Source: Candidatus Dojkabacteria bacterium (GTDB taxonomy: Bacteria; Patescibacteriota; Dojkabacteria; SC72). From it: a stretch of 64,000 nucleotides of DNA. A program made the translations under genes and the position numbers. Shown piece by piece: positions 10,309 through 57,360 of this stretch (positions are counted from its first letter, which is position 1; the number at the start of each line of letters is the position of its first letter). The stretch lies in the NCBI GenBank assembly GCA_012842045.1, contig DUTP01000001.1, forward strand, positions 28,534-92,533. The letters run 5' to 3'. The notes under the pieces are model-generated. The model did no database searches and was not told where the DNA came from. It worked only from the letters and a program-made list of their open reading frames with translations.

Positions 10309-11838
10309 TTAGGTTTTTAATAATCTTATAACCTCTTCCGGATGTACAGCATACTCTTGAGCTTTTTGTACAGATATCAAACCTTCCCTTACTAAACCTA
10401 CAAGTGATTTCTCTAAATACATCATGCCTACATCCGAACTTGTTCTGATTACATTATCAATCTGATATGTTTTACCCTCTCTAATAAGGTTCGAGATAGC
10501 AGAATTATTAAACATAACTTCCGAAACAGCTCTTCTACCACCTCTATCTAATGGTATTAATCTCTGAGCAATAACAACTTGTAAAATATTAGAAAGTTGA
10601 GACCTAACCTGTGGTTGTTGATTCTCTGGGAACACATCTATGACTCGATCGATTGTCTGAGAAGCATTGTTCGTATGTAGAGTGGCAAAGACCAAGTGAC
10701 CTGTTTCTGCTAGTGTAATAGCAGCTGCAATTGTTTCGTAGTCTCTCATTTCACCGACAAGAATAACATCAGGATCTTGCCTCATTGCACTTCTTAAAGC
10801 AACAGCCCAAGAGTTAGTATCATCATTCATCTCTCTTTGGTCAATCAATGCTTTCTTACCATCGAAGATATATTCAATTGGGTCTTCTATAGTAATAATA
10901 TGTTCAAATCTATTCCTATTAATATCTTCTAACATAGCAGCAAGTGTAGTACTTTTACCATGCCCCGTAGGACCTGTCACTAACACCAGACCTTGTTTTA
11001 ACTTTGTAATCTGATAATACACTTGAGGTAAAGATAATTCCTCAATGGTTTTAACTCTAGTAGGAATTAATCTAAAAGCCGCTGAGAGATTCTTCATAGA
11101 ATAGAAGGCATTAACTCGGAATCTACCTGTCTGATCTCCTTGGTGCGAATATGCAAAATCTATTTCCCTATTAACTTCTAGTAATTCCTTCTTATCATCA
11201 GGAACGATAGAAAGAATTAATTTTTCTGATTCCTCCGAAGAGAGAGGCTGTTCTCCAATATCAACAAGTTGACCATCAATCCTAATGACAGGAGGATATC
11301 CCACTGAAATATGTAAGTCGGATGCATTCCTTTTTATAACCTCCTCAAAAAGCACGCCCATTGTAAATGTTGTAGTCCCAATATCAACGACTGCATGACC
11401 ATCTCCCCCCTGTATCTTAGGAGAGAGAGGTTCGGAGAGATTATCTTCTTTTTTATCCCTCTTCATAGCCCTGACTACATGTTGCTCTGGCATAATCTTT
11501 TCAAGAGAATCACTCCAAACTTCCTGTTGAGACGGTTGCTGAACAGCAGGGGAAGTATCTAGATTAGGCAACGGTGTAACTTCCTGCACATATCCTGTCT
11601 GAGTCGCATTGGACTGAATTTCTGAAGTAGGGGGAGTATCTATTAATTCCCCAATGTTTTTTTTAAGTTCATCTAGTTTCTGCTGATCTATATAAGTGGA
11701 CGTACTATTGTCTGCAGCTGGAACTCCCGACTGGGTTGACGAAGTAGCAGGAGGAGTAACTTGTGATTGCTGATGAGAAAAATCAGAGTAACCAAACTGA
11801 ATACCAGCATCATTTTGATTTTGGGCAGTGTTTTGCAT
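10309..11838 (-). CDS. pilT: Twitching-motility/retraction ATPase PilT-like with a ~150-aa low-complexity N-terminal extension
   Basis: Walker A GPTGHGKSTT, Walker B/Asp box IITIEDPIEY, His box ATLHTNNA, and PilT-type core length. The N-terminus is rich in Q/S/T/P. Confidence 0.8.
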   Translation of the reverse strand: MQNTAQNQNDAGIQFGYSDFSHQQSQVTPPATSSTQSGVPAADNSTSTYIDQQKLDELKKNIGELIDTPPTSEIQSNATQTGYVQEVTPLPNLDTSPAVQQPSQQEVWSDSLEKIMPEQHVVRAMKRDKKEDNLSEPLSPKIQGGDGHAVVDIGTTTFTMGVLFEEVIKRNASDLHISVGYPPVIRIDGQLVDIGEQPLSSEESEKLILSIVPDDKKELLEVNREIDFAYSHQGDQTGRFRVNAFYSMKNLSAAFRLIPTRVKTIEELSLPQVYYQITKLKQGLVLVTGPTGHGKSTTLAAMLEDINRNRFEHIITIEDPIEYIFDGKKALIDQREMNDDTNSWAVALRSAMRQDPDVILVGEMRDYETIAAAITLAETGHLVFATLHTNNASQTIDRVIDVFPENQQPQVRSQLSNILQVVIAQRLIPLDRGGRRAVSEVMFNNSAISNLIREGKTYQIDNVIRTSSDVGMMYLEKSLVGLVREGLISVQKAQEYAVHPEEVIRLLKT

Positions 11839-11858
11839 GTTTTAATATACCAAAAAAT

Positions 11859-14565: not shown

Positions 14566-16485
<1,920 letters not shown>

Positions 16486-16501
16486 CTTTTATATTAAAAA
16501 C

Positions 16502-17050
16502 ATGAATACTGATCTACAAGAAAACATAAATGAGGCTAATGAACATCAAAACAAACCAGCTAGCTTCTACGATGTTGCAACTATGCTTAATCCAGAAGCA
16601 AAATATATTGCTCAAGATTCAGCATCTGGTAGTGCAAAAACAAATATAGAATTGGCTCTAACAAAAGCATTAGACGATAACGGGAAAGCAAGCAGAACAA
16701 TCGTAGACATATTAGATTTAGATGGAACTGAAATAGGAGCACTAATGAGGAAATGTGCAGGTTTACCTAGGAAAGATGAGGAAAAAGACGACTCTTTGGT
16801 ATACACAAGTGATAGAGAACCAGATAGACAAAGAACAATGTTTCTACTTTTTCACAACCATGATGAGAAGAATACATATCAATGTATAATGCTTAGGAAA
16901 AAACGAGAAAGACCTTGGGAAATAGACCCTCAAAATGTAATGTGGGAAGATATAGATATTAGTGTGGATGAGGAAACAGCAGAAGAATTAGATGCAGTTA
17001 TGTATGAATTGAAATCTAAGTTTAGGGATAATCTTTTAGCTTTAAATTAA
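16502..17050 (+). CDS. Hypothetical acidic protein encoded between gyrB and gyrA
   Basis: 182-aa ORF, no TM, no recognisable motif; compact spacing with gyrB (16 nt) and gyrA (21 nt) suggests co-transcription. Confidence 0.5.
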   Translation: MNTDLQENINEANEHQNKPASFYDVATMLNPEAKYIAQDSASGSAKTNIELALTKALDDNGKASRTIVDILDLDGTEIGALMRKCAGLPRKDEEKDDSLVYTSDREPDRQRTMFLLFHNHDEKNTYQCIMLRKKRERPWEIDPQNVMWEDIDISVDEETAEELDAVMYELKSKFRDNLLALN

Positions 17051-17071
17051 CAAGAGATTCTAGTTTTTAAA

Positions 17072-19813
17072 ATGGATGAAGATAAAAAAACAACACAAGA
17101 AAATATAGATACAGTAGAGCAGAACTCCACATACAATTCTGGAGAGATTACTAACAGATCAATCGTAGATGAAATGAAAGGTAACTACCTTGACTACTCT
17201 ATGTCCGTAATCGTCTCAAGAGCTCTACCAGAAGTAAAGGATGGGCTTAAGCCATCACAAAGAAGAATTCTTGTAGCTATCAATGATTTAGGCCTAACAC
17301 CTTCTTCTCATTACAGAAAATGTGCAAAAATTGCAGGAGATACATCAGGTAACTACCATCCACATGGTGAGGTTGTAATATATCCAACCTTAGTAAAAAT
17401 GGCTCAAGACTTCTCCATGAGATATCCATTAGTAGATGGACAAGGAAACTTTGGTTCCATTGATGGAGATGAAGCAGCAGCCATGAGATACACAGAGGCG
17501 AGAATGGGGAAGATTACACCAGAACTCATTAATGAGATAAACAAGGGAACGGTAACATTCATACCAAACTATGACGGCACAAGACTAGAACCAACAGTAT
17601 TACCTGCAGGTTTTCCAAATGTACTAGCAAATGGTGGAGATGGAATTGCAGTAGGTATGGCTACGAAGATACCTCCTCATAACCTAACAGAATTAATTAC
17701 TGCTTTACAAAAAATGATTTCCCTAGGTAACAAATGGGAAGGTAAAGCAGTATATGATGAATTAAGAAAACAGAAAGAAAAAGGTGAGAGAATCCCACAA
17801 TTACTTAATGCACAACCAGCTGATTACTTAGAAAACTACATAGATACAAAAGATGCTACCAACCAAGAGGTAATTGATACTCTAAGAGCAAAGATAGCAG
17901 AAGATGGAAATGTCCTCTATCCTGAATTTAAATCGGACATTACTCCAGAAGAGTTAGTTGAGATAATACCAGGACCTGACTTCCCAACAGGAGCAACAAT
18001 ATATGACAGAGAAGAAATCCTTAACACATATGCAACCGGTAGGGGAAGAATATTACAAAGAGCAAAAGCATCAATTGTAGAGGGCAAACAAGGAAAATAC
18101 CAAATCGTTATCACCGAAATACCTTTCCAAGTAAACAAAGCAAACCTCATTACAAAGATTGCTGACTTGGTAAAGGATAAAAAGATTAAAGGAATTTCCG
18201 ACATTATAGATGAATCCAATATCGAAGGAATGAGAGTTGTTGTATATCTCAAGAGAGATGCACAACCAAAGGCAGTTCTAAACAAGCTCTACAAATATAC
18301 AGAGATGCAAAAAGTCTTCAATGCCAATATGATTGCATTGGTTGACAAAGAGCCAAAGACATTACCACTTAAGAGATTCTTAGAACTCTTCCTTTCTTTC
18401 AGATTAGTAGTAACAATCAGAAGATTTGAATTTGATTTAGCACAAGCAAGATACAGATCTCATATCTTAGAAGGATTACTTAAAGCAATTGATATGCTTG
18501 ATGAGGTAATTGCTACAATTAGAGCTTCAAAAACACAAGAAACAGCAAAAACAAACTTAATGGATAAGTTTGATTTTACAGAAGTACAAGCCCAAGCAAT
18601 TTTGGATATGCAGTTAAGAAGATTAGCAGCACTTGAGAGAATGAAATTGCAGAACGAACAAAAAGAATTGAAAGAGAAGATTAAGGAATTAAATACTCTT
18701 CTTGAAGATCCAGAGAAGATGTTGGAAGTTGTAGATGCTGATCTTGAGATTATTAAAGAAAAGTTTGGAGATGAAAGAAGAACAAAGGTTGTAAAAGGTA
18801 AAGTTGATGAGATATCTGAAGAAGACATGATTGCTTCCGAAGATACTTTAGTAACAATTACCAACTCTGGATATGTAAAGAGATTAAATCCAAATACATA
18901 CAAAGCACAGAATAGGGGAGGCAAGGGTGTTTCAGGAGGAGAAACAAAAGAAGGAGATTTCATAGAACATGCTTTCTTGTGTAATACTCATGATGAACTA
19001 CTACTTTTCACAAACAAAGGTAAAGTATATACACTTCGAATATTTGAAATCCCTGATTTAGGTAGAACAGCAAAAGGCTTACCTATCGTTAATCTTGTAC
19101 AACTAGACCCCGATGAACTTATAACTTCAGTATTAACCAGAGATCCAAAGGGTAAGATTGCAGAAGGAAAGAGTACAGAAGAGGCTAAAGAGAAGGAAAT
19201 AGCAAGAGAGTACAAATATCTTTTGATGGCAACAGAGAATGGTGTTGTAAAGAAAACTGCACTCCCTGAGTTTAAGAAGATTAGAGCAAATGGTTTAGTA
19301 GCAATTAAGTTAGATGAAGGAGATCAATTGATAGGGGTTAAAGCTACAACAGGTGATGACCAAGCAATTATCCTCACAAGGGAAGGTAAGTCTGTGAGAT
19401 TTAAAGAAACAGATGTTAGACCTATGGGTAGAAGTACAAGAGGTGTAACAGGTATTAAGTTTAGAAGTAAAGAGGATAGGGTAGTAGGTATTGGAATTGT
19501 AGAGAGTGATGAACAGCAACTTCTAACTCTTTCGGAATATGGTTATGGTAAGATGACACCACTTAAAGAGTATGCAACTCAGAAGAGAGGTGGTACAGGT
19601 ATCTTCACATTTAGAGTAACACCAAAGACAGGTAATGTAGCTTGTGCAAGAATCTTAAGAGAAGAAGATGAAGAGATTGTTGTAATATCTGAGAAATCCA
19701 AGGTTATTAGAGCAGATCTTAAGGATGTGCCAAAGCTCAAGAGACAAACTTCAGGTGTAAAGATGATGAATATTGGAACTGGTGATAAAGTAGCAACAGT
19801 AGCTATACTCTAA
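17072..19813 (+). CDS. gyrA: DNA gyrase subunit A (with a ~75-aa insertion and an N-terminal extension)
   Basis: Active-site AAAMRYTEARM, QRRILVA, GPDFPTG motifs and C-terminal beta-pinwheel repeats. 913 aa. Confidence 0.95.
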   Translation: MDEDKKTTQENIDTVEQNSTYNSGEITNRSIVDEMKGNYLDYSMSVIVSRALPEVKDGLKPSQRRILVAINDLGLTPSSHYRKCAKIAGDTSGNYHPHGEVVIYPTLVKMAQDFSMRYPLVDGQGNFGSIDGDEAAAMRYTEARMGKITPELINEINKGTVTFIPNYDGTRLEPTVLPAGFPNVLANGGDGIAVGMATKIPPHNLTELITALQKMISLGNKWEGKAVYDELRKQKEKGERIPQLLNAQPADYLENYIDTKDATNQEVIDTLRAKIAEDGNVLYPEFKSDITPEELVEIIPGPDFPTGATIYDREEILNTYATGRGRILQRAKASIVEGKQGKYQIVITEIPFQVNKANLITKIADLVKDKKIKGISDIIDESNIEGMRVVVYLKRDAQPKAVLNKLYKYTEMQKVFNANMIALVDKEPKTLPLKRFLELFLSFRLVVTIRRFEFDLAQARYRSHILEGLLKAIDMLDEVIATIRASKTQETAKTNLMDKFDFTEVQAQAILDMQLRRLAALERMKLQNEQKELKEKIKELNTLLEDPEKMLEVVDADLEIIKEKFGDERRTKVVKGKVDEISEEDMIASEDTLVTITNSGYVKRLNPNTYKAQNRGGKGVSGGETKEGDFIEHAFLCNTHDELLLFTNKGKVYTLRIFEIPDLGRTAKGLPIVNLVQLDPDELITSVLTRDPKGKIAEGKSTEEAKEKEIAREYKYLLMATENGVVKKTALPEFKKIRANGLVAIKLDEGDQLIGVKATTGDDQAIILTREGKSVRFKETDVRPMGRSTRGVTGIKFRSKEDRVVGIGIVESDEQQLLTLSEYGYGKMTPLKEYATQKRGGTGIFTFRVTPKTGNVACARILREEDEEIVVISEKSKVIRADLKDVPKLKRQTSGVKMMNIGTGDKVATVAIL

Positions 19814-23730: not shown

Positions 23731-24733
23731 AACCTCCCTTAAAACTCTTTAAGAAATTACCATAATCTGCAAGAATATTCTTCTCTGCTGGACTACTTTC
23801 TACCACTATTGCAGGTATTCTCTCTCCTCTAAATTGCCTCACCTTAAGCCATTCTCCTATCTCTCTATTCACATCAAAATTATTCCCTAAAGGTAGATGC
23901 GTTCTAACCGTATCATCAGTATACTCCTTGCCACTCAAAGATAGAAAGAGAGGTAGATTGTTCTTCCCTTGTCTTTCTAAAGCTTCCATAATTCTAAACA
24001 TATCTTTGTATTCCTCTTTAGGTAATCCACCCATATCTAAATCAATACCAAACTTTAAGCTAGCATTTTTAGGATTATTTTTAATATTGTCATATATTGT
24101 CATAAAATCTACAAATGTACCATCTCCTATCTTTTTGTTTGGTTCAATAGCCCAGATTACATTCTTTCCTAATCCTTTCAATTTAACAGTCAACTGCCTT
24201 ATCTTCTTCATCTCTTCTTCAAATGATACTGTTTCAATACAGGTTCTTACCTTAACAACATCGTCTTTCATAGCCTGTACTGCTTCTAAAGTACTTCCAA
24301 TTTGATCTTCCTCTGAATGAGATTGGAGTAGGGCATATGCATACTCTTTCCCTAAAGCTACAGCCAATCCTAAACCTCTATAACCTTCACCCTTAACTCT
24401 TTGCATTTTTTCATTAAGAAATTGCTTGTTAAACTTAACAAGATAGGGGTAGTCTACAGAAGCTAAAAACCCTTGTATACCTGATGGATTTAATGAAGAT
24501 GCTAATACAGATACACCAAACTCTGCTTTGTCTCCTAAATGTTCTTGAGTGATTCTTTGTGCTTCTAGAGCATTTTCTACAACAATGTTTGTATATTTCT
24601 CTTTGTCTAGAGCAGATTGAACTAAACCTGCTACAGCCCCAATATTCCCTCCTTCTTGATTAGGATTACCTAGAGATACAGAACTTAATTGTATATCTAA
24701 TTTGTCTTCTTCAGAGTATGGCATTGTTTCCAT
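23723..24733 (-). CDS. Hypothetical protein (336 aa)
   Basis: Long ORF with coding-like composition but no motif I can assign. Overlaps the GT2 stop by 8 nt. Confidence 0.4.
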   Translation of the reverse strand: METMPYSEEDKLDIQLSSVSLGNPNQEGGNIGAVAGLVQSALDKEKYTNIVVENALEAQRITQEHLGDKAEFGVSVLASSLNPSGIQGFLASVDYPYLVKFNKQFLNEKMQRVKGEGYRGLGLAVALGKEYAYALLQSHSEEDQIGSTLEAVQAMKDDVVKVRTCIETVSFEEEMKKIRQLTVKLKGLGKNVIWAIEPNKKIGDGTFVDFMTIYDNIKNNPKNASLKFGIDLDMGGLPKEEYKDMFRIMEALERQGKNNLPLFLSLSGKEYTDDTVRTHLPLGNNFDVNREIGEWLKVRQFRGERIPAIVVESSPAEKNILADYGNFLKSFKGGFN

Positions 24734-27585: not shown

Positions 27586-28413
27586 TTACTTTAATATCTT
27601 TCTAGAAAATTCAAACGCTTTCATAAAAAGAGTAGGGGGAAGAATACTAAGTATTCGAACTCCTACTTTTTGCATATTCCATATAACATATTCTCTAAAT
27701 GTAGGCTTAATATTTAAATTCTGTATAGCCCAATTCCTCATATCATTTGTTAATTTAAAATGTTCCACCATTTTAGACTGACTCTCTGTTTGAAAAGTCA
27801 TTCTGTATTTAAGTACAGTATCAGGTAAATTAGCAAATTCACCTTTTGTACTAAGTATGAGAAAAAGTTTTACATCTTCTACTTTCCACATATCTTCAGG
27901 ATAGAGACCTATCTCTTCTAATGTAGATTTTCTTAATGTAACAGCTGGATGTGCAAATGGTTGGAAGAGAAATCTGTTTTTCTTTAGGTCTTTATCATTC
28001 TGTGCATATTCCCTATGTCCAGTAATATTTGAATCTGCATCTATGATATCTATTTGACCACCTACAGCAACACAATTAGGATTACTTTCTAGATACTCAA
28101 CCTGTTTTTCAATTCTATCCGGATACATAATATCATCTGCATCCATTCTTGCTATGTATTTACCCTTAGATGCTCTTATGCCGATGTTAATGACATTACC
28201 TAAACCATTCTGTTTCTCTACTGGGAACACCTTTATCTTCTCTCCATATTCTTTTAGAATCTCTAAAGTACTATCCGTACTCTTGTCATCCACAACTATT
28301 ATTTCAATATTACTGTATGTCTGTGCAAGACAACTATCTATTGATTCTTTAATATATTTTTCGCCATTGTGAACAGGTATGACAATGGAAACAACAGCTT
28401 TATTTAAATCCAT
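27586..28413 (-). CDS. Family 2 glycosyltransferase
   Basis: VSIVIPVHNGEKYI, IIVVDDKSTD, DADDIMYPDRIE motifs (GT2 GT-A fold, DxD). Confidence 0.8.
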   Translation of the reverse strand: MDLNKAVVSIVIPVHNGEKYIKESIDSCLAQTYSNIEIIVVDDKSTDSTLEILKEYGEKIKVFPVEKQNGLGNVINIGIRASKGKYIARMDADDIMYPDRIEKQVEYLESNPNCVAVGGQIDIIDADSNITGHREYAQNDKDLKKNRFLFQPFAHPAVTLRKSTLEEIGLYPEDMWKVEDVKLFLILSTKGEFANLPDTVLKYRMTFQTESQSKMVEHFKLTNDMRNWAIQNLNIKPTFREYVIWNMQKVGVRILSILPPTLFMKAFEFSRKILK

Positions 28414-32105: not shown

Positions 32106-34511
32106 ATGGGTATAGAAGACTTTGGAAGTTCTGATGTTTCCGTTGATATTCCAGACGTTCCAGTTGAAGTTCCTGTAACTCCTGTTAACAATACAGTTGA
32201 TGTGCCTACAGCTTCTACTGACACTCCAGTTGAAGTCCCAGGTGATACATCTACAACCCAGGGTGATATCTCAGAAAATCCTATCGAAAACAATATTAAT
32301 GTTCAGCCACAAACTGGTTTACAGAATGACAATGATGTTAGTAATATTAACAAGAGTCAAGATCCTGAATATATGCGGTACAGAACAGCATTGAATAGCG
32401 TAAGAAATGAAGACAGGACATTAATAGCAGAAGATAAAAGAAGAAGAGAAAGAGGAGACAGTGTTGCTACAATAATGGAGGATGAAGAAGCGAAGAGATA
32501 TGAGACAACTCTGGAACAAATGGATGGCAGACCAAACTTAACTACACTAGATCAATCACTAGCTAAGGATGATGCTGAAAGACAAAGCAAAGGAGATAGT
32601 GTTGCTACAATAATGGAAGATGAAGAAGCTAAGAGGTATGAAGCAACTCTTGAGCAAACTGTAAATAGACCACATATGAGTACTTTAGAGAGAAGTAAAA
32701 TGAGTAGTGAAACTCCAGTGATAGAAGACGATCAAACAAGAAGGTTACAAGAAACAATGGAAGAAACAGGACAAGAAATTCCAGAGCTTGGTACTGAAAA
32801 CATTGATAATCCAGAAGCTCTTCTGAATGAATCAAGACCTATTGCAGGCATAGACCCTGCCGAATTAAGTCGTAATCCATTCCATAAAAAAGAAGACTCT
32901 GAAACACCTATGCAAGGAGAACAATCAGCTGAAGGAAAACAACCAGCCGAAGAAGGACAACCAGCTGAGGGAGGACAACCAGCCGAAGAAGGACAACCAG
33001 CTGAGGGAGGACAACCAGCCGAAGAAGGACAACCAGCCGAAGGAGAACAACCAGCCGAAGGAGAACAACCAGCCGAAGGAGAACAACCAGCCGAAGGAGA
33101 ACAACCAGCTGAAGAAGAACAACCAGCTGAAGAAGAAGGAAAACCAAAAGAGGGTGAAGAAGAAACACCCGAAACTGAAATGAAACAAGATGCTACACTT
33201 GCAGAGATTGAAAAAAAGATGAAAGAATTTGAAAACATAATTAATCAATATAAACAACAATTGAAACAAGGAACACCTAAGACTCCTAGTACTCCTACAA
33301 AAGCACCAGACGCATCTGGAGGAAGAACACCAACAACCGGACAAGCAACTAGTGCCACTGGACAAAACACTGGACCAACACCAAGTATGACCGGACAAGC
33401 ATCTAGTACAACTGGTAGAACACCTGTTAAAACAGTCAGTAGCGAAGCTTCAGCAACAGCAACTCAATGGACTGAAGTACCGAAAGATATTAGGACAAGA
33501 ACCCCAGAGAATGAATTAAATGTAATAAATAGTAGAATAAAGGCTCTTGAAGACAAAGAAAAGAAAGAGCCATTAACATACGAAGAATATCTTGAATATA
33601 GAGAACTAAGACTACAAAGAGAAGGATTATCAAAAACCGCAGCTATTGAAGCAAAAGAGAAAGAAGAAAAGCATAAAAGAAAACTAAAGACCTGGTATAT
33701 AGTAGCTGGTTGTCTTGGCGGAGGTGCAGGACTATTTGGTGGCCAAGTTGCTGCAGCAGCAATAATAGGAGGAGGCGTAGTAGGAGCGGGTGCCTCTATC
33801 GTTGAATGGGTTGGCAAGAGAAAAGTAAAAAGCTTAACAGAACAATTGTCTAAAGCAAAAGGCGCTGAGAAAGCTGAATTAGAAAAGAAATTGAGTAAGT
33901 GGGAAAATGTTGTACAAGGTGCTAATGACACAAAGAAAGTAGTAGGCGTCTTCTTAGGTGCTGCAATTGGAGGTAAATTCTTAGGAAATCTCATCTTTGG
34001 ATCTGGTGGGTTAGGTGGAGCAATAGCGGGAAGCGGACTATTTGCAAAAGGATCAAGTGAAATTGAAAATTTAAGCCATAATACTGAAGGAACCGATGGC
34101 CCTGATATGCAACCTAATAACCCCACAACCACTGGGGTTGGCGGAGGCAAAGAAACAATAACAGCAGATGTAGATATTGGATTAGGTGGGGGAGATGCTC
34201 CCACTATTGAAGCAGGGTTTAATAGCGGAATGTTCGAAACTGGTATTGACCCTCAAACAGCTAAGAACCTTTTTGGTTGGGAAGGAACTAATTTCATACT
34301 AGGCGAAGCTGGTGGAGAACACGGTAGAATCCAAAAGACCTTCTTCGAAAGTATGAAAGCAGCATTAGGTGGAGGGCCAGAAGCGGAAGCAGCAATGAAA
34401 GGAGTCGATGCAGCAAGACAATATGACGGATTGCTTAAAGATGCTCTAAATGGAGCTGACCCAGTAGTAGCAGGACAAAATGCTGCAGCACGTCTTCAAC
34501 CACAACCATAA
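32106..34511 (+). CDS. 801-aa acidic low-complexity repeat protein with C-terminal glycine-zipper transmembrane hairpins
   Basis: ATG at 32106. Internal 15-bp (QPAEG)n tandem array, a duplicated RGDSVATIMEDEEAKRYE(T/A)TLEQ module, a T/P/S-rich linker, two Gly-zipper hydrophobic segments (GGGAGLFGGQVAAAAIIGGGVVGAGA and GAAIGGKFLGNLIFGSGGLGGAIAGSG). Confidence 0.6.
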   Translation: MGIEDFGSSDVSVDIPDVPVEVPVTPVNNTVDVPTASTDTPVEVPGDTSTTQGDISENPIENNINVQPQTGLQNDNDVSNINKSQDPEYMRYRTALNSVRNEDRTLIAEDKRRRERGDSVATIMEDEEAKRYETTLEQMDGRPNLTTLDQSLAKDDAERQSKGDSVATIMEDEEAKRYEATLEQTVNRPHMSTLERSKMSSETPVIEDDQTRRLQETMEETGQEIPELGTENIDNPEALLNESRPIAGIDPAELSRNPFHKKEDSETPMQGEQSAEGKQPAEEGQPAEGGQPAEEGQPAEGGQPAEEGQPAEGEQPAEGEQPAEGEQPAEGEQPAEEEQPAEEEGKPKEGEEETPETEMKQDATLAEIEKKMKEFENIINQYKQQLKQGTPKTPSTPTKAPDASGGRTPTTGQATSATGQNTGPTPSMTGQASSTTGRTPVKTVSSEASATATQWTEVPKDIRTRTPENELNVINSRIKALEDKEKKEPLTYEEYLEYRELRLQREGLSKTAAIEAKEKEEKHKRKLKTWYIVAGCLGGGAGLFGGQVAAAAIIGGGVVGAGASIVEWVGKRKVKSLTEQLSKAKGAEKAELEKKLSKWENVVQGANDTKKVVGVFLGAAIGGKFLGNLIFGSGGLGGAIAGSGLFAKGSSEIENLSHNTEGTDGPDMQPNNPTTTGVGGGKETITADVDIGLGGGDAPTIEAGFNSGMFETGIDPQTAKNLFGWEGTNFILGEAGGEHGRIQKTFFESMKAALGGGPEAEAAMKGVDAARQYDGLLKDALNGADPVVAGQNAAARLQPQP
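32931..33140 (+). repeat. In-frame 15-bp tandem repeat (~14 copies) encoding (Q-P-A-E-G/E)n
   Basis: caaccagc(c/t)ga(a/g)g(g/a)ag(g/a)a repeated head to tail; a coding repeat inside the 801-aa ORF. Confidence 0.85.
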
Positions 34512-35024: not shown

Positions 35025-36326
35025 TTACTTTAATGGATGGTATTGTCTTACTGTATCCTCAGCGAATTTTTCACTAGCATGAACATATTTTGTTGTCGTA
35101 TTTAAGCTAGAGTGACCTAAAAGTATCTGTAAAGCCGCTGGGCTAGCACCTTTCTCAGCCATATATGTAGCAAAACCATGCCTCAAACTGTGAGCAGAAG
35201 TCTTCATTTGAATACCCAACTTCCTCCTATATTCCGCTATCTTTTCCTGAAAATAGTTTGTAGAAATCCTAGAACCTTTCTTTCCATACCTTCCACCAGA
35301 GAAAGGAATGAAGAGAGCAGGGGAGTCAAACTTTTTCAAATAACCAGTTTCTCTATACTTCTCAACTATTTTTATATACTTCAACTCATCATCAAACATC
35401 TCAAGATTTAACATAGATGACTCCTCTTCATCTCCACTACCAGATGTTTCACGCTCAGGGGTGAAACTTTTTATCTCTTTCTGTTGCTCCTCATCAGTAA
35501 AAGCATAATTAAGCCTTACTTTTAGGTAGTTATTCAACCATCTAAGACTTCTCGGTGTCATATATACAGACCTTTCTTTTCTTCCTTTACCTAAAATATA
35601 CATATGACCCTCAGTATTAATCTGATCCAAATCAAGACCAATTAATTCAGAAATCCTCATACCAGTAGCAAAAAGCATCTCTAACATACACCTATTTCTC
35701 AATGCAACTTTCTCATCTTTCTCAAACTCCATGGGAGATTCAATCAATCTAATCATCTCTTCCATCGGAGGAATCTTCTTCATACGCTTCTCAGCCTTCA
35801 TCATTCCAATTGCATCAGGTGGTAACGGTATCTCCAAGTCCCATTCAATTCTAAATTTCAAAAATGACCTCAAAGCAGACAACATTCTATTTATACTATT
35901 CGGATCCAAACCATCAGAACTCTTAGATGAGCGAACTGAGCTTCCAAGACTCCCGTAGACCTTCTTGTAGATATCAGAGAGAAATCCACTCTCAAAACCA
36001 GGTGTGTTCATACCACCCAAATCTTTCGAAGACCTCAGAGAGCCTCCTAGAGCCTCGCCCTTGCTTAATGTTGTTATATCAACATCTTTTACATATTCAT
36101 CCCTTATTTTATCCAAATCTTTAATATGTTCACCAGCAACTAGATACCCTTTGTATGCACTAATGTCCTTTTTAGTAACTTTCATAAAATCTACATCTCT
36201 AAAGTGTAGAAACACAGCAAAGATAGAAAGGTCTCGAGCATAGTTAACAATGGTCTGGGGACTGTAATTGTTGTTCTGTAAATCAATCAAGAAGTCATCC
36301 TGATCATTTAGTTTTGGTATCTCCAT
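35025..36326 (-). CDS. Tyrosine recombinase (phage-integrase family; XerC/XerD-like with a low-complexity insertion)
   Basis: C-terminal catalytic motifs HSLRHGFATYM ... LLGHSSLNTTTKYVH (R-H-R-Y family). N-terminal SAM-like core-binding domain. 433 aa because of an S-rich insert. Confidence 0.8.
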   Translation of the reverse strand: MEIPKLNDQDDFLIDLQNNNYSPQTIVNYARDLSIFAVFLHFRDVDFMKVTKKDISAYKGYLVAGEHIKDLDKIRDEYVKDVDITTLSKGEALGGSLRSSKDLGGMNTPGFESGFLSDIYKKVYGSLGSSVRSSKSSDGLDPNSINRMLSALRSFLKFRIEWDLEIPLPPDAIGMMKAEKRMKKIPPMEEMIRLIESPMEFEKDEKVALRNRCMLEMLFATGMRISELIGLDLDQINTEGHMYILGKGRKERSVYMTPRSLRWLNNYLKVRLNYAFTDEEQQKEIKSFTPERETSGSGDEEESSMLNLEMFDDELKYIKIVEKYRETGYLKKFDSPALFIPFSGGRYGKKGSRISTNYFQEKIAEYRRKLGIQMKTSAHSLRHGFATYMAEKGASPAALQILLGHSSLNTTTKYVHASEKFAEDTVRQYHPLK

Positions 36327-36362
36327 ACTTTATCTTACTACAAAAATTAAAATAGAGAAATT

Positions 36363-36756
36363 GGAGTAGGGGGCTGTTTTTTTGAATTCCTGGAAAAAGA
36401 AAAAAGAATGAGAAAAATAGAAGAAGGAACAAGAAAGAACAGATAAGGATGAGGAATATGATATGTTGAATGTTTAAATAATTAAGCATTGTAAGTACTT
36501 TCTTGATTTTAAATATACAGAACCGCACATAATGGCGATTATACTCGGTTACATATTCTAGAATTGTAACATCTTTTCTAAGAGAGTGGTACCCTGATGA
36601 TGGACATTGATTGAATCTTAAATCTTCCCAAATCTTTTATTTAATCTCTACCTATTATAATACCCAAGTTAATAATATTATTAGCAGAAACTTGTCCACA
36701 CTGATTACTATAGGATATTGAACACTATAGGTTTCACTGGTGGCACCCCCTACTCC
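36363..36756. repeat. 11-bp GC-rich perfect inverted repeat pair (GGAGTAGGGGG / CCCCCTACTCC) bracketing a ~370-bp AT-rich noncoding segment
   Basis: Copies at 36363-36373 and 36746-36756. A T7 run follows the first copy. No ORF in between; an internal direct repeat actatagg x2. Confidence 0.6.
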
Positions 36757-36773
36757 CCTATGCTACAGCACAC

Positions 36774-37586
36774 CTATATATTCAAAATGAATATTAACAC
36801 TGAAGAAAGTATTAGAAAGAAAATATATAACCAAAAACTTTTAACATAACCCTCCGATATCTTCTCATGGGTTACAACATTAACACAGAGAAAGTACCCT
36901 ACTACTGGTGCAAAAGACAAAATCTCATGCATATTGCCAACAAATATTACTGCAACAAGCAAAACAGCCATTATTAATGTTGTTACAAAGCTCTTTCTTA
37001 ATAATTCTTTACCTTCAAGATCAATGTTAATATAGTGAAGAGAAACTATTAGGAAAAATGCTAATAATACCGCAGGAAGAGATATATAGACTGGAAGACC
37101 ACTTGCAATAAGGCTAAAGGTAAGAAAATAAATCATAAATATTGATGAAAGATATGAAATTGTCCTACCAACTTGTGCAAGAGGTATAGGTTTAAACTGA
37201 TTTACATTCAAAACATTAACCATCAAGAAAACAAAGTAATTAGCAAAAAAGACTGCTATCATAAGGAATAGTAATATAAATGCTTCATATATCCTACTGA
37301 ATTTTTGAAAGAAGAAGAACTCTACAAACAGGTATTCAGAGAGGATAAAAAGAGAGGCTTGGAATATATACAGAAAAGATTTCTTCTTTACCTGAAAGTT
37401 AAGTGCCCAAAGAAGACCTACGAAAGTAACTCCAAAATATGCAAGAGAATTAACAAATATTCTCCAAACAGGATATGTTTCTCTAGATACAATTTTGAAG
37501 ATAAAGATAGGTAGAGCAACTAATGCCGCTAATAGCAACAGTTTTCCTCTCTTTTCACTATCTACATTACCCTCTTCCCTTCTCAT
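36774..37586 (-). CDS. Hypothetical polytopic integral membrane protein (270 aa)
   Basis: 8-9 predicted TM helices; no assignable motif. Confidence 0.5.
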   Translation of the reverse strand: MRREEGNVDSEKRGKLLLLAALVALPIFIFKIVSRETYPVWRIFVNSLAYFGVTFVGLLWALNFQVKKKSFLYIFQASLFILSEYLFVEFFFFQKFSRIYEAFILLFLMIAVFFANYFVFLMVNVLNVNQFKPIPLAQVGRTISYLSSIFMIYFLTFSLIASGLPVYISLPAVLLAFFLIVSLHYINIDLEGKELLRKSFVTTLIMAVLLVAVIFVGNMHEILSFAPVVGYFLCVNVVTHEKISEGYVKSFWLYIFFLILSSVLIFILNI

Positions 37587-38604
37587 TTTCTAATGATTCT
37601 AAATATTTTAATCCTTTCTGTGTAAGGACTCTACCCCTACTCGTTCGTTTGATAAAACCACATTTCATAAGGTATGGTTCATATACATCTGCAACTGTAT
37701 TCTCATCTTCCGAAATTGATGCTGCAAGAGTAGAAAGACCAACAGGTCCTCCTGCAAAATGCTCTAGCATTGTCTTTAATATTATCCTATCTATCCTCTC
37801 AAGCCCCTGTTTATCAGTACCTAATAGCTTTAATGTATTCTTTACTACATCTTTTGTAATCTTGTCATCACCATGACTTTGTGCATAGTCTCTACACCTT
37901 CTCAAAAGCCTCAACCCTACTCTAGCAGTACCTCTTGAAGCTTCAGAAAGAGCTTTTACAGCATCCTTCTCTATCTCTAAGTCCCACAGTCTACATGCTC
38001 TTTCAAGTATCTCTACAAGGTCACTTTCTGAGAAGAAATCTAATCTCTGTATTAACCCAAACCTATCTCTCATAGGGGAACTAATCTTCCCTATCTGTGT
38101 AGTAGCACCAATTAGTGTAAATGGCTCTAAATTAAGCCTAATCGTCTTAGCTGTTGGACCTTTACCCATGACAATATCCAACATTCTGTCTTCCATAGCA
38201 GGATACAAAATCTCCTCTACCACCTTCGATAATCTATGTATTTCATCAATGAAAAGTACATCATTAGCTTTCAAACCAGTTAATATTGCAGCTAAATCAC
38301 CCTGTCGTTCAATGGCTGGACCTGACGTAACCTTGATGTTAGCCCCTATTTCATTTGCAATAGCAACAGCAAATGTAGTCTTACCAAGCCCTGGAGGACC
38401 ATAGAAGAGAATATGATCGATAACTTCCTTTCTCCTTCTAGCAGATTTGATCATAATTTTTAAGGTTTCTTTCTCTGTAACTCTACCGATAATTTCATCC
38501 AATTTACTTGGTCTAATTCCTTCCTCATATTGTCCACTATTCTTGTTATCAGAGGATTTCTGTACCTGAGTACTTTTCTTTTTCTCTTTACTTGATTCTA
38601 TCAT
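37567..38604 (-). CDS. ruvB: Holliday junction branch-migration helicase RuvB
   Basis: Walker A GPPGLGKTT, Walker B LFIDEIHRL, sensor and RuvB C-terminal winged helix. Confidence 0.9.
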   Translation of the reverse strand: MIESSKEKKKSTQVQKSSDNKNSGQYEEGIRPSKLDEIIGRVTEKETLKIMIKSARRRKEVIDHILFYGPPGLGKTTFAVAIANEIGANIKVTSGPAIERQGDLAAILTGLKANDVLFIDEIHRLSKVVEEILYPAMEDRMLDIVMGKGPTAKTIRLNLEPFTLIGATTQIGKISSPMRDRFGLIQRLDFFSESDLVEILERACRLWDLEIEKDAVKALSEASRGTARVGLRLLRRCRDYAQSHGDDKITKDVVKNTLKLLGTDKQGLERIDRIILKTMLEHFAGGPVGLSTLAASISEDENTVADVYEPYLMKCGFIKRTSRGRVLTQKGLKYLESLENEKGRG

Positions 38605-41523: not shown

Positions 41524-44058
41524 TTACTCACTCTTCTTCAGTGTACCTACTTTCTTCTTACTCTTAGGTTTCAAATCTTTCTCTTCCTTATAATCTTTTT
41601 TAGATTCTTTTACAGGTTCTTTTTCTTCAGTAGTATCCTCTTTCTTCTTCATATTACTCCTATTCCCCTTCTCACTATATGTCTGATTACTCCACTTCAT
41701 AATCTTCTCCTCTATCTCCTCTCTTGGCATACCATATATCTCTCTAGAATGTAATACAATCTCATCTCTAAGATTGTACTTCTCAAATCTAATAGGTAAA
41801 GACTTAGCACTAAACGGTACAGAAGTCATACCATCAATACAAAGCTTAATATACATGGCATATGCATCCAAAGAAACAAGGTCATCAGAAGAAACAACAG
41901 GAGCAAATTCCTTCTCTAAAATACTAGCATCAGCCTGACTAACAACAAAAGAACCAAGAGTACCGACATTACCAAATATAGCTTGTCTAACAGTAAGAGG
42001 TAATTGATCAATATATTGATTAGTCATAGTTAGATTAAGTTTGTACTTCCTAGCTTCTGAAAGAATCTTAGCAAAAGAATCTGTAGCAAAGTTCTGAAAC
42101 TCATCAACATACAAGTAAAAATCAGTCCTTTGTTCTTCAGGTATATCTACCCTCTCCATAGCTGTAGCTTGAAGTCTTGTAATTATCATTCCTCCTAGAA
42201 GAGATGCAGTCTCCTCACCTAGTCTCCCTTGTGCAAGATTAACAAGAAGAATCTTCCTGTTATCCATTATCTCCCTTAAATCAATTGTTGACTTAACCTG
42301 ACCAATTATATTCCTAGTAACAGCAGAAGAGATAAATCTACCAACCTTATTCTGTATTGGAGAAATAGCTTCTGCAAGTAACCTGTTGTTTTGAGACATC
42401 TGTGTAAACTCTTCTTCCCAGAACTTGTAAAGAATTGGATCGTTTACCTGTTTTAATATAAATTTCCTGAAATTCTTGTCTGTTAACATTCTAATCACTG
42501 CAAGAAGAGTTGTACCCTGAGCCTCCATTACAGTAGCTACAGTGTTAGTAAGAATGTATTGTAACCTAGGTCCCCAAGAATCACCAAACTGTTTCTTAAA
42601 CACCTCTACAACCCCATCAGCAATCAAATCTCTCTGTGACTTATCCTTCAATTCCAAAAGATTAAAACCAACAGGATGATCAACATCTGTAGGGTTAAAA
42701 TACACGACATCATCTACCCTATTTGGTGGAATATATGAAAGAAGTTCCTCCACTGTATCACCGTGAGGATCAACAAAACATGCACCATCACCAGCTAAAA
42801 CGTCTGAGATAAACATGTTTTTAAACAGCGTAGACTTACCTGTACCTGTCTTACCTAGCAAATAGAAGTGTCGCACCCTATCTCTTCTCTTAATACCAAA
42901 TTGCACTTTCATATCTCTGTAATCTGTCCGACCGAAAACTGTAACATCCTCCTCCCCTTCAATAGGTAAATCCATAGGAGGTTCTAACTTCCTAGCCCTA
43001 CTCCATGCAATATTGGGTGTTTCTACAGAAATATTAGGCAGATGATACAACGATGCAAGTTCTTCAATATTAAGAATATCAACATCTTCATCCAACTCCC
43101 TCTTTACATACATAGAGTACAGTTCCTGACCTTCTTTTGAAGGTGGAGCATAGATAAAGTTGTTTAGATGGGCTGTTGTAAACTGCTTAAAACTAGCAAC
43201 AACATCTCTTAATAACTGCTCAGATCTAAACTGATCTGCGGCCTTTGTTACAACCCTAACCTGAAATTCAAAACCAACCTTCAACATCTTCAACTCTATC
43301 TCTCTTAACTCTTCATCCTGCCCAGGTAACAACTTAACTATCTCTTTTTCAGCTGACTTACCCGAAGAATCTGTACTAAGAGCATCTCCGATTCCACCAG
43401 CAATCTTAGATACAACCTCACCAAAAGATGGTCCACCTATACTTTTACCCTCTTTTACTGCCGTAATATATTCTTTTGATTTCTCTTGCCAGAAATTTGA
43501 GACAGGTCTTACCACTATCTGCAACCAAACCTTCTCACCAATATTTAACTCAGACATCGCTCCAGTTATTGCAGCTAATGGGTCAACCTCAAAACTTCTA
43601 AATGTCTTAATTGGAAAAATGGAATCCTTCTCCATCTCTATCTCTCCTACTGTAACAAAGCTATTCGCTTCACTTCCCTCCTTTGTATAGTCCTGAACAT
43701 ACTCAATCTCAGCGTTAGGATACTGTGCATAAATCTGTCCTTCGATAAAACGACAAAGATGCTCAGGAGCTACAACAAAAAATCTAATACCTTCTGTTTC
43801 GGTAGATATAATCTCAAAACTAACAACATCAGCACACCTCTTATTCGCACCTAAAATACCATGAATAGATGCAAACATCTGTTCAGCAGCCAGAGCTGCC
43901 TTCTCATTCTCTCTTGGAACAAGAATTTGCATAACTAAAGGATTTCTAACACTATTGAACACAACCTCTTCTTCAGGCTTCTTTCTGAAAATAAAGATGA
44001 CAATCCCAACAAGGATTAAAATTAAAAATATTATAATAACCATTATGACAGTTTCCAT
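41524..44058 (-). CDS. Membrane-anchored T4SS-family AAA-like ATPase (VirB4/VirD4-TraG/DUF87 superfamily)
   Basis: One N-terminal TM, ~380-aa unknown domain, Walker A LGKTGTGKST, Walker B YLYVDEFQNF, C-terminal arginine-finger-like ARKYKLNLTMTNQYIDQL resembling TraG-D_C. Confidence 0.5.
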   Translation of the reverse strand: METVIMVIIIFLILILVGIVIFIFRKKPEEEVVFNSVRNPLVMQILVPRENEKAALAAEQMFASIHGILGANKRCADVVSFEIISTETEGIRFFVVAPEHLCRFIEGQIYAQYPNAEIEYVQDYTKEGSEANSFVTVGEIEMEKDSIFPIKTFRSFEVDPLAAITGAMSELNIGEKVWLQIVVRPVSNFWQEKSKEYITAVKEGKSIGGPSFGEVVSKIAGGIGDALSTDSSGKSAEKEIVKLLPGQDEELREIELKMLKVGFEFQVRVVTKAADQFRSEQLLRDVVASFKQFTTAHLNNFIYAPPSKEGQELYSMYVKRELDEDVDILNIEELASLYHLPNISVETPNIAWSRARKLEPPMDLPIEGEEDVTVFGRTDYRDMKVQFGIKRRDRVRHFYLLGKTGTGKSTLFKNMFISDVLAGDGACFVDPHGDTVEELLSYIPPNRVDDVVYFNPTDVDHPVGFNLLELKDKSQRDLIADGVVEVFKKQFGDSWGPRLQYILTNTVATVMEAQGTTLLAVIRMLTDKNFRKFILKQVNDPILYKFWEEEFTQMSQNNRLLAEAISPIQNKVGRFISSAVTRNIIGQVKSTIDLREIMDNRKILLVNLAQGRLGEETASLLGGMIITRLQATAMERVDIPEEQRTDFYLYVDEFQNFATDSFAKILSEARKYKLNLTMTNQYIDQLPLTVRQAIFGNVGTLGSFVVSQADASILEKEFAPVVSSDDLVSLDAYAMYIKLCIDGMTSVPFSAKSLPIRFEKYNLRDEIVLHSREIYGMPREEIEEKIMKWSNQTYSEKGNRSNMKKKEDTTEEKEPVKESKKDYKEEKDLKPKSKKKVGTLKKSE

Positions 44059-53034: not shown

Positions 53035-54867
53035 ATGAACCCAAAAACCACAACAAAAATAGCCACAGTAATCCTAACCACAATATCACTACTCCTACTA
53101 CCAAAACTTGTATATGCACAGAAACAGGCCGACTTTATCATCAACACCTACACAAAAATTCACTACACAACAGGACAGGATTTTGTAACTGTTGTAAGCA
53201 ATTATGAGAAGAAAGTTGAGAACGGTACTTTCTACTTAACAAAAGAAGGAGAAAAAGTCTTCCATATTCCAGATTTAGAAAAGGATATTGATAATATTGA
53301 GAAAGAGAGAAAATTTAAACAAGACAACTTAACTGTAACAGATATGAATAAAAACCCCATTAAGTACAGTGTTGAACAACTGACTCTTGGACAAGGAATG
53401 TACGTACATGTCCCTCATTACAGAGAAACAACAAAATCAATGCCCTACTCTATTATTATGACATATAAAACACATGACAATATCATTAAAGCTGGAAGAT
53501 TAGTAACATTAATTGGATCCGCTATACCAGAAAACACTCAAAAAGAAAAAGATGATATTAAAAGTGGTACAACTACCTCGTTGAACTACTATTTCTCCTT
53601 TGTTGTAGATGAGAACATACCCACATTAGCAAAAGCATATCCTAAATTTACCAAAAAGAAAGAAGACAACTTAACATATTACAATTTTAGTACAGAAGAG
53701 AGAAAGTCTGCCTCACCGACACTAGAATTTGGGACTGATGTGATATATCGCTTTGAGTTAGAGTATAAAACTCCCAAGACAGATTCTTTCATACCTGAGG
53801 AATATGCAGGACTGTTTAAAGCCCTTTCTACAAATATATACGAGATGTCTTTACCAAGAGAATATTCAGAAACCAATCAAGAAGTATGGATCGATACTAT
53901 ATCTCCTACACCAAAAAATATCTTTCGGAATAGAGAAGGAAATGTAATAGCTTCATTTGAGGTACCATCAAATAAAGAAGATATAATCAAAGTATCAGGA
54001 TACATTCGACAGAGTAAGCAACCATACACAGTAAACCATCTAGAGAAACTAAATATTGATTTTAAAGAATATTTAGAAAAAATTGGTCAAGACAAAGGGA
54101 ATATTAAATATTTAACTTCTACTAAGTATTGGGAAATAGGAGACCCTTTTATACAAGACGCTGCAGCATCACTACTCAAAGGAAAGAAAACTCTGTTTGA
54201 GGTGGTAGATGCTAATTATGAATATGTCAACGAGAAATTAACATATGATGAAGAGAAGGCAAATTCAGAAAATACTAGAATTGGTGCGGTCAATGCACTT
54301 GCTGGTGGTGCTTCTGTCTGTATGGAGTATGCAGATTCTATGATTGCTTTGCTAAGAGCACAGGGAATACCTGCTAGAGCAGCTTTAGGATATGCCAATA
54401 TTATGGATACAGAGAGAGTACAAGTGAGACATCAGTGGGTACAGATTTGGATCCCTGACCATGGTTGGTTTAGCATTGATCCAACATTTGAGAGTAAGAA
54501 TAGAAAGATGGGACAAATGATTGACAGAGTTCTTTGGGAGACATTTTACGATGATTCCCTCTCTAATATAAGTATTTTTTCCATAAATGATGAGGATAGC
54601 TTCTCTGAAGACAATTACAAGGTAGAAATCTTTGCTGTTGATAATATGTCTGGTGGAAATATGAAAAAATATAATGAGATAATCCCAGAAACAAATATTG
54701 ATGATGAAGCAAGATATAATATGGTCACTAAATCTAATTCTTTCTTAAAAACCACCGTATTAGGAAGAGCTTTACTAGTCACAGCCCCTGTAATAGTACT
54801 AATTATCTTTATGACTATTCTAATTGCTCTAATTAAGAAAGTTATTAGAAGAGAAAAAAAGAAATAG
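53035..54867 (+). CDS. Secreted, membrane-anchored transglutaminase-like cysteine-protease-domain protein
   Basis: Signal peptide. Cys-His-Asp triad context GASVCMEYADSMIALLRAQGIPAR ... RHQWVQIWIP ... SIDPT. C-terminal TM and basic tail. Confidence 0.7.
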   Translation: MNPKTTTKIATVILTTISLLLLPKLVYAQKQADFIINTYTKIHYTTGQDFVTVVSNYEKKVENGTFYLTKEGEKVFHIPDLEKDIDNIEKERKFKQDNLTVTDMNKNPIKYSVEQLTLGQGMYVHVPHYRETTKSMPYSIIMTYKTHDNIIKAGRLVTLIGSAIPENTQKEKDDIKSGTTTSLNYYFSFVVDENIPTLAKAYPKFTKKKEDNLTYYNFSTEERKSASPTLEFGTDVIYRFELEYKTPKTDSFIPEEYAGLFKALSTNIYEMSLPREYSETNQEVWIDTISPTPKNIFRNREGNVIASFEVPSNKEDIIKVSGYIRQSKQPYTVNHLEKLNIDFKEYLEKIGQDKGNIKYLTSTKYWEIGDPFIQDAAASLLKGKKTLFEVVDANYEYVNEKLTYDEEKANSENTRIGAVNALAGGASVCMEYADSMIALLRAQGIPARAALGYANIMDTERVQVRHQWVQIWIPDHGWFSIDPTFESKNRKMGQMIDRVLWETFYDDSLSNISIFSINDEDSFSEDNYKVEIFAVDNMSGGNMKKYNEIIPETNIDDEARYNMVTKSNSFLKTTVLGRALLVTAPVIVLIIFMTILIALIKKVIRREKKK

Positions 54868-56400: not shown

Positions 56401-57360
56401 TTATTTAATTACCATATTATCAAAAATCCAAGGGTATTTCTCCTTAACTAAATCTCTAATATTATTAGGGGAAACCATACCAAATTCTGTCAAGTATCCT
56501 GTTATCAATACAGAGTCAACAATCTCAAATGCTGGATTATACATATGCAAACCTTTAGGAGCATCTTCCCAAAGTTCTTTATCCTCCCTAACTTCAATCT
56601 TCACAGTATCTAGAAACGAGGTTGGGTCAATCTTCAACAAAGGGGTTACAACATAGAGAGACTTACCTGCATAGTATGATGCCATTGCTATTCCCCAACT
56701 CCCTATCTTGTTAATCGTATGACCCTCGGCAGTAATCTGGTCACATCCAATGAAAACAGCATCTATTTTTACACTACCTCTACCAATTATGAAAGATTCC
56801 GCTGCACTATCTGCAATAAAAGTTGTCTTAACACCTGCTTCTAACATACTTTTAGCTGTCTTTCGACCTTGATATCTTGGTCTAGTTTCTGTGCATACGA
56901 CTTCAAAATCAGGATCTCCTTTCCCTATAATTTTCATAACCGCAACAGCAGTTGAAGAATGACAGTGCGTAAACATCTTATCTATATATGTAAGATTTTT
57001 TGCATTTTGAGCAATCAAATCTTTTTTAGTAGATGCTATCAGCTCTAAGTACTCATCACACAACGCTATCAACTCTTGTTTCATGACCGAAAGTTCTGGT
57101 AAAACAGGAAATCTCTCTTTAAAAAAATGAAGAATATATGTTACACCATTTCTTGCAAGTGGTTCATTATCTCTAGCAAGGGCTAACTCCCATCCAACCC
57201 TACTCAATTCAGAGAAAAGCTCATCTTTGTCTGTTTCCTCAGTTTTTTCAAGATAGATTTTCATACCTTCAAAAGTTGAAATAGCTACATTAGTAGCACC
57301 TTGAATGTTCAACTTTTGTATATCATCAAAAATCTTTTTTACTTCAGGATACTCCTTCAT
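56401..57360 (-). CDS. Ribose-1,5-bisphosphate isomerase (eIF-2B alpha/beta/delta-like, e2b2 family)
   Basis: eIF-2B-like fold motifs (GATNVAIS, CHSSTA, TETRPRYQGR, IGCDQITAEG). Adjacent to the AMP phosphorylase. Confidence 0.75.
   Translation of the reverse strand: MKEYPEVKKIFDDIQKLNIQGATNVAISTFEGMKIYLEKTEETDKDELFSELSRVGWELALARDNEPLARNGVTYILHFFKERFPVLPELSVMKQELIALCDEYLELIASTKKDLIAQNAKNLTYIDKMFTHCHSSTAVAVMKIIGKGDPDFEVVCTETRPRYQGRKTAKSMLEAGVKTTFIADSAAESFIIGRGSVKIDAVFIGCDQITAEGHTINKIGSWGIAMASYYAGKSLYVVTPLLKIDPTSFLDTVKIEVREDKELWEDAPKGLHMYNPAFEIVDSVLITGYLTEFGMVSPNNIRDLVKEKYPWIFDNMVIK

Follow-up and report, generated by a model that had tools for sequence, protein, structure and literature searches.

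Bacteria of the Candidate Phyla Radiation are uncultured, and the picture of their chromosome handling has largely been inferred from gene lists. In E. coli and B. subtilis, FtsK/SpoIIIE translocases are oriented by the polar words KOPS (GGGNAGGG) and SRS (GAGAAGGG), respectively, and the chromosome dimer-resolution site (dif) of E. coli reads GGTGCGCATAA-TGTATA-TTATGTTAAAT. Prediction of KOPS has been based on over-representation, a density of at least one copy per 40 kb and a skew of 90% or more in the region around dif, and the SRS of B. subtilis was analysed in the same study as GAGNAGGG (PMC3384302). In archaeal dif, 11-bp inverted repeats enclose a 6-bp spacer (PMC2958812), and it has been proposed that a dif located beside the recombinase gene may typify Xer systems with a single recombinase (XerS/difSL and XerH/difH; PMC5357621).

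The locus described here was found in a 64-kb stretch of DNA from a Dojkabacteria bacterium (hereafter the window; features in Table 1). The first-pass annotation had drawn attention to an exact inverted repeat of GC-rich 11-mers upstream of a tyrosine recombinase gene, and both the positions and the complementarity of the arms were confirmed (GGAGTAGGGGG and its exact reverse complement CCCCCTACTCC, with 372 nt between them). Its other descriptive points were reproduced as well: the segment is bounded on one side by the recombinase start (36326, - strand) and on the other by the stop (36774) of a 270-aa membrane-protein ORF, no convincing ORF was found between the arms, a run of seven Ts follows the first 11-mer, and the internal direct repeat ACTATAGG is present in two copies (36707-36714 and 36724-36731). 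Allowing at most one mismatch, the 11-mer matched the window six times where 0.37 matches were expected, a count reached by none of 100 shuffles. Two features had been absent from that annotation: the arms are copies of an over-represented, strictly polar octamer of the whole genome, GAGTAGGG, and a near-invariant 28-bp palindrome lies between them. The inverted repeat is real and biologically meaningful, and is best read as the converging, innermost pair of KOPS/SRS-type motifs around a dif-like site beside xer.

Table 1. Features of the candidate dif region and copies of the polar octamer, in window coordinates
Feature	Position	Strand	Remarks
GAGTAGGG copy	1686-1693	+	Points towards palindrome
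GAGTAGGG copy	7742-7749	+	Non-coding strand of a - strand gene
GAGTAGGG copy	9314-9321	+	Non-coding strand of a - strand gene
GAGTAGGG copy	24326-24333	+	Non-coding strand of a - strand gene
GAGTAGGG copy	27630-27637	+	Non-coding strand of a - strand gene
XerC/XerD-like tyrosine recombinase	35025-36326	-	433 aa; insertions relative to XerC/D
Left arm of inverted repeat	36363-36373	+	Holds GAGTAGGG at 36364-36371; innermost KOPS-like motif on the xer side; points right, to the palindrome
Purine tract	36386-36465	+	81% purine; between left motif and core; pyrimidine-rich on the xer-sense strand
Candidate dif core, 11-6-11 imperfect palindrome	36522-36549	.	Arms and variable centre; in window letters ACCGCACATAA (36522-36532), TGGCGA (36533-36538), TTATACTCGGT (36539-36549)
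Conserved ruv-side flank of core	36563-36731	-	TGTTACAAT (36563-36571); DnaA-box-like TGTGGACAA (36692-36700); two CCTATAGT repeats
CCTATAGT repeats in ruv-side flank	36707-36714 and 36724-36731	-	
Right arm of inverted repeat	36746-36756	-	GAGTAGGG at 36748-36755; innermost KOPS-like motif on the ruv side; points left, to the palindrome
Membrane-protein ORF	36774-37586	-	270 aa; followed by ruvB, ruvA and ruvC on the same strand
GAGTAGGG copy	37635-37642	-	Points towards palindrome; within ruvB, position kept in ~20 species
GAGTAGGG copy	37915-37922	-	Part of window count
GAGTAGGG copy	42996-43003	-	Part of window count
GAGTAGGG copy	53443-53450	-	Non-coding strand of the sole + strand gene on that side
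GAGTAGGG copy	57198-57205	-	Part of window count

The octamer occurs 12 times in the window, that is, once per 5.3 kb, compared with 0.97 +/- 0.96 copies expected from order-2 Markov simulations (maximum 4 in 300). All 12 copies point to the palindrome and the strand switch is perfect, with six + copies at or left of 36364 and six - copies at or right of 36748. Shorter and more degenerate forms behaved alike in the window: GAGTAGG and AGTAGGG were found at 18:0 and 15:0, respectively, and 19 of the 21 members of the whole GAGNAGGG family were in the 'towards' orientation. Across 63 xer-oriented sequences, the sense:antisense ratio of GAGTAGGG outside the element was 46:0 upstream, where some counts are inflated by orthologous positions (for example, one ruvB site common to ~20 species), and 0:50 downstream, where the copies are scattered; the downstream and window counts are free of such inflation. 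In the same 63 sequences AGTAGGGG pointed towards rather than away from the locus at 78:1, and the polarity counts for 7-mers agreed. An unbiased scan of all 8-mers placed GAGTAGGG among the top words, with 100% polarity (95-100% when its overlapping neighbours are taken along). Moreover, the extended consensus of the free copies, AGAGTAGGG(G), is the sequence of both 11-mer arms, and one copy of this type is fixed on each side of the palindrome core, at ~170 and ~215 bp, in ~63 species; the left arm in particular is kept at a fixed offset in the 63 sequences.

The polarity of the octamer is independent of gene orientation. In the downstream set of 50 copies, 25 sit opposite the coding strand of a gene, 12 are on the coding strand itself and 13 are intergenic, so the polarity is not a coding-strand effect, and on the xer-downstream side it runs opposite to third-position GC skew. 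In density (1 per 5.3 kb), in skew (100%) and in its reversal at the palindrome, GAGTAGGG exceeds the published criteria for KOPS. By analogy with KOPS and SRS, it is very probably a guide word of this kind, which FtsK would recognize. A second strongly polar word, AGTAAAGA, was also noticed in the window flanks (16:1 towards the locus as the 8-mer; 31:5 for GTAAAGA).

The palindrome between the arms reads ACCGAGTATAA-TCGCCA-TTATGTGCGGT on the xer-sense strand, and its general form is ACCGAGTATAA-N6-TTATRTGCGGT. In the 63 sequences, the first arm (ACCGAGTATAA) is identical in 56 and TTATATGCGGT is found in 43, while the central hexamer takes 13 forms. Its inner ends are dif-like (TATAA/TTATA), and it is located about 225-270 bp upstream of the XerC/D-like gene; in the window 196 bp separate the core from the start codon of xer, and its placement is similar in the 63 sequences. 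No second such palindrome was found in 1.08 Mb of loci. Conserved arms, a variable centre and TATAA/TTATA inner ends together fit Xer sites, and in the non-coding DNA on either side of the palindrome, purine skew and GC skew switch sign about this point. This 28-bp palindrome is probably dif, at which Xer would bind and cleave. The suggestion in the first-pass annotation of a dif- or att-like pair of recombinase sites thus held in one part, in that a dif-like site is present, and failed in the other, as the 11-mers are copies of the polar word that bracket this site.

A scan of viral contigs for the core returned seven matches, about the number roughly expected by chance. Three of the contigs from IMG/VR (L090, at 3146-3165, L092 and L094) carry ACCGAGTATAA-TTAGTC-TTATATGGAGT between two ORFs, with one arm identical to that of the Dojkabacteria core and the other matching it at 9 of 11 positions; the 479-aa ORF downstream of this site we take to be a putative terminase. 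The similarity may be due to chance, or the site may be a phage site that borrows the host Xer.

The recombinase scored best against the XerC and XerD models, plus an XerD structure, and its homologues are annotated as Candidatus Dojkabacteria, a lineage of the Candidate Phyla Radiation, where orthologues are 57-99% identical and 433-470 aa long, with insertions. Nine loci retrieved by exact protein-sequence look-up share one order: ruvC-ruvA-ruvB-membrane protein, a gap of ~370-480 nt, and xer. A scan of one genome per species extended these to 79 loci, of which ~63 have the same blocks in the gap at near-fixed offsets from the xer start codon: GTAGGGG (~-450), TGTGGAYAA (~-400), TGTTAYRAT (~-260), ACCGAGTATAAT (~-240) and CCCCTAC (~-60). 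The element is therefore single-copy, ancient and syntenic, occupying a fixed slot in all Dojkabacteria loci that were compared. A sister lineage (L065, L066 and L086), whose Xer is 50-55% identical, has only ~60 nt upstream of xer, with none of the gap blocks, and within +/-10 kb neither the element nor the palindrome was found there. This lineage served as a negative control: polarity does not flip at its xer, and in L066 AGTAGGG was 7:0 on one strand on both sides of the gene; thus the flip in polarity goes with the element and not with the xer gene.

Two further observations concern the surroundings of xer. In three metagenome-assembled genomes (L063/L087, L056/L088 and L083/L085) the contig breaks inside xer, with overlapping C-terminal fragments on two contigs, of which strain variation or a repeat may be the cause. 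Immediately downstream of xer in the window is an 801-aa ORF (32106-34511, +) with repeated EGQPAEG units and Gly-rich low-complexity runs; it had no Pfam match, and the corresponding region varies between species.

Whether the locus is the replication terminus was approached through gene orientation and skew. In each of the 22 Dojkabacteria loci whose 10-kb flanks are complete, genes converge on the element: those upstream are 100% co-oriented, and most of those downstream are opposite. Third-position GC skew does not invert: to either side of the locus (1-36000 and 36800-64000) it is the - strand of the window that is G-rich, and in 24 loci that have complete 10-kb flanks the replication component of this skew, as estimated, passes from ~+0.19 to ~+0.07, with its sign unchanged within 10 kb. 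A terminus defined by skew would thus lie >36 kb away. In published surveys, shift-points of skew are correlated with dif, if loosely, and not coincident with it, and a tolerance of 5% of the genome has been used (PMC3025954); in a genome of ~0.7 Mb this amounts to ~36 kb, so that the mismatch is a caveat rather than a refutation. Genes and polar motifs converge at the locus, which may be the replication terminus. A replication origin was considered and rejected: the element has a single conserved TGTGGAYAA, the polar motifs run towards each other instead of apart, and the genes on either side face the locus. Elsewhere in the window, gyrB and gyrA (14575-19813, +) are located 17-22 kb from the putative dif and adjoin a block of opposite, divergent orientation (10309-13679, -) that includes two genes for type II/IV secretion ATPases. 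The divergence of gene orientation at ~13.7 kb is not accompanied by a flip of the polar motif. No ftsK gene was found in the 64-kb window.

Taken together, we consider it likely that the locus is a dif region bracketed by its innermost KOPS-like motifs. When replication leaves a chromosome dimer, two dif regions would be trapped at the septum, where septal FtsK would load on the DNA and, by analogy with KOPS in E. coli and SRS in B. subtilis, read GAGTAGGG via its gamma domain. It would then pump DNA towards dif from either side, to the point at which the motif reverses. Xer would occupy the palindrome with one protomer per 11-bp arm, the outlying 11-mers themselves not being bound by the recombinase, and FtsK on meeting the bound Xer would activate strand exchange across the 6-bp centre. 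The fixed pair of GAGTAGGG copies ~170 and ~215 bp from the core would provide a minimal zone of correct polarity right up to dif.

A different account of the ~390-430-nt interval is that its xer-sense (window -) strand encodes a structured non-coding RNA particular to the lineage, with the 11-mers as its closing helix, as the first-pass annotation had proposed for an RNA of ~390 nt, and the palindrome as an internal hairpin. The long-range pairing of the 11-mers does hold in 93% of cells across the 63 sequences (43-64% in slid controls), its covariation of 0.135 exceeds that of shuffles (0.101; 0 of 500 reach 0.135), and its non-Watson-Crick pairs on the xer-sense strand comprise 55 G.U and 7 A.C. 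However, both strands of this 'stem' are copies of a genome-wide polar word, and because the arms are two copies of one degenerate motif, complementarity, shared variants and apparent covariation all follow. The length of the interval is roughly constant and the order of its blocks is kept across the class, and two local hairpins fold better in sense than in antisense in 44 and 52 of the 63 sequences, respectively; yet the folding z-score of the window favours antisense (-3.0 versus -1.5), and swapping hairpin halves between species did not weaken folding (-8.39 kcal/mol self versus -8.59 kcal/mol swapped for the mid hairpin, -4.13 versus -4.10 kcal/mol for the post-palindrome hairpin). Several hairpins seem by eye to covary, but in the swaps G-rich and pyrimidine-rich halves paired equally well between species. 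RNAalifold on the 63 sequences returned invariant pairs only, with a covariation term of -0.6 kcal/mol, and a scan of column pairs for covariation was dominated by conserved AU-rich blocks. The palindrome combines invariant arms with a variable loop, the opposite of the usual pattern of RNA hairpins. Neither Rfam cmscan (gathering and E-value thresholds) nor ARAGORN matched the element, be it in the window or at the loci of 10 other species, and tmRNA, RNase P RNA, 6S, SRP and group I/II introns, whose universal motifs were absent by inspection, were rejected. A literature search on Dojkabacteria non-coding RNAs or RNA-guided tyrosine recombinases found nothing. With both swap tests negative, the RNA families empty and the stem covariation explained by motif copies, the closing-stem proposal was not borne out, and a structured RNA is distinctly unlikely.

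The remaining explanations concern the octamer, the interval and the repeat. GAGTAGGG fits the GRGNAGGG family of KOPS and SRS, and is not known to match any Chi sequence. Were it nevertheless a Chi-like hotspot (RecBCD/AddAB-type) or a compositional leading-strand word, the pair in the element would mark only a replichore boundary. Chi sites are likewise over-represented and skewed to the leading strand (PMC3384302), but the skew is 100% beside the putative dif, skew in that region being the key criterion for KOPS, a copy fixed on each side ~170-215 bp from the palindrome in ~63 species suggests a role tied to the site, and a compositional word is hard to reconcile with a polarity that does not follow third-position GC skew on the xer-downstream side; we regard this explanation as quite improbable. 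That the interval is ordinary intergenic DNA, made up of the terminator of the membrane-protein operon and the promoter or 5' UTR of xer, with the inverted repeat incidental, would agree with its position, flanked by the stop codon of one gene and the start codon of another on one strand, and with -10-like TAAGAT/TAATAT sequences seen by eye 6-9 nt before the xer ATG in several species, of which TAAGAT a few bases before the ATG hints at a leaderless xer mRNA. Against it, a sigma-70-type scan of 36150-37000 found no promoter-like site (4.4 +/- 2.1 in shuffles), a gap of 400 bp, invariant blocks included, persists among proteins of only ~60% identity in genomes of 0.6-0.8 Mb, the sister lineage expresses xer from an intergenic gap of ~60 nt, and the repeat arms mark where a genome-wide polar word changes strand, all of which makes the ordinary-DNA explanation very improbable. 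The first-pass annotation had further offered the 11-mers as terminal inverted repeats of a MITE-like insertion, as an exact 11-bp inverted repeat bracketing an AT-rich non-coding segment would allow. The window has one copy of the element, and ~0.9 Mb of flanking DNA from relatives contains none of its internal blocks. At least 63 sequences, each from a different Dojkabacteria species, carry it at one syntenic position, and no empty site was found among Dojkabacteria; being single-copy, ancient and syntenic, it is not a MITE, and that origin has practically no chance of being right.

The reading of the locus as dif with its innermost guide motifs leaves part of the element aside: a simple dif/KOPS model gives no role to ~200 bp of strongly conserved flank. 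The blocks of the ruv-side flank (CCYRTAGT, TGTGGAYAA and TGTTAYRAT) belong to the element alone and do not recur as words across the genome. Alignment of the 63 elements showed two to three tandem CCYRTAGT units at a spacing of 17 nt, followed by the near-invariant, DnaA-box-like TGTGGAYAA; variants of the repeat (CCTGTAG and CCCATAG) often switch together within one species. On the other side of the core, the composition of the purine tract is kept in all species and its sequence is not; in the window the tract includes GAAGAAG, the guide word of L. lactis. It is conceivable, if rather unlikely, that the whole ~400-bp block is one Dojkabacteria-specific unit, in either of two forms: an accessory-sequence-dependent Xer site, in which the CCYRTAGT repeats and TGTGGAYAA would be bound by the extra domains of the long Xer or by a partner protein and impose directionality, or a transcribed structured RNA spanning dif that would take part in recombination or regulate it. 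This ~400-bp architecture is the part of the locus most likely to hold something new.

The system as such is a familiar bacterial one, and its guide word and dif are, on a narrow literature check (on Dojkabacteria non-coding RNAs), apparently described here for the first time in Dojkabacteria. For one class of the Candidate Phyla Radiation the locus offers a concrete picture, consisting of a candidate dif, a candidate FtsK guide word (GAGTAGGG) and an xer-dif module. The octamer may serve as a composition-independent aid for orienting replichores, locating the terminus and checking Dojkabacteria metagenome assemblies. It would also extend the GRGNAGGG family of guide motifs beyond Proteobacteria and Firmicutes, and the fixed innermost motif pair plus the conserved flank suggest constraints around dif that have been unseen in model organisms.

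Compared with known systems, the candidate core shares with E. coli dif its length of 28 bp, its 11-bp arms and 6-bp centre, and its inner ATAA/TTAT ends, and matches it at ~13-14 of 28 positions (in our own alignment). The same level is reported for the dif of archaeal XerA, which, compared by layout, also has two nearly symmetric arms. The Dojkabacteria core differs from canonical dif in that its outer arms (ACCGAG/GCGGT) and C-rich centre are lineage-specific and no skew inversion was seen at the site. As with the accessory sequences of the plasmid Xer sites cer and psi, conserved DNA (~200 bp) flanks the core on one side, here beside the better-conserved arm, a resemblance of position only; the Dojkabacteria site differs from them in being chromosomal, in having KOPS-like flanks and in lacking recognisable PepA, ArgR or ArcA sites.

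As in XerS/difSL of streptococci and lactococci and XerH/difH of Helicobacter and Campylobacter, the site adjoins the recombinase gene, whose product is longer than XerC/D. In contrast to those systems, the Dojkabacteria protein scores best against XerC/XerD models and not XerS or XerH, and its site is located 225-270 bp upstream of xer inside a conserved block of ~400 bp; moreover, difSL is 31 bp long with an 11-bp centre, whereas the Dojkabacteria site is 11-6-11 with near-palindromic arms. In common with KOPS and SRS, the word is an over-represented, strongly strand-skewed, G-rich octamer of the form GRGNAGGG, which is directed at the putative dif along both chromosome arms and reverses there. 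GAGTAGGG departs from them in its fourth base, T, in its skew of 100%, in a density above the published 1 per 10-13 kb, and in the copy fixed on each side, ~170-215 bp from the core, in every Dojkabacteria species examined.
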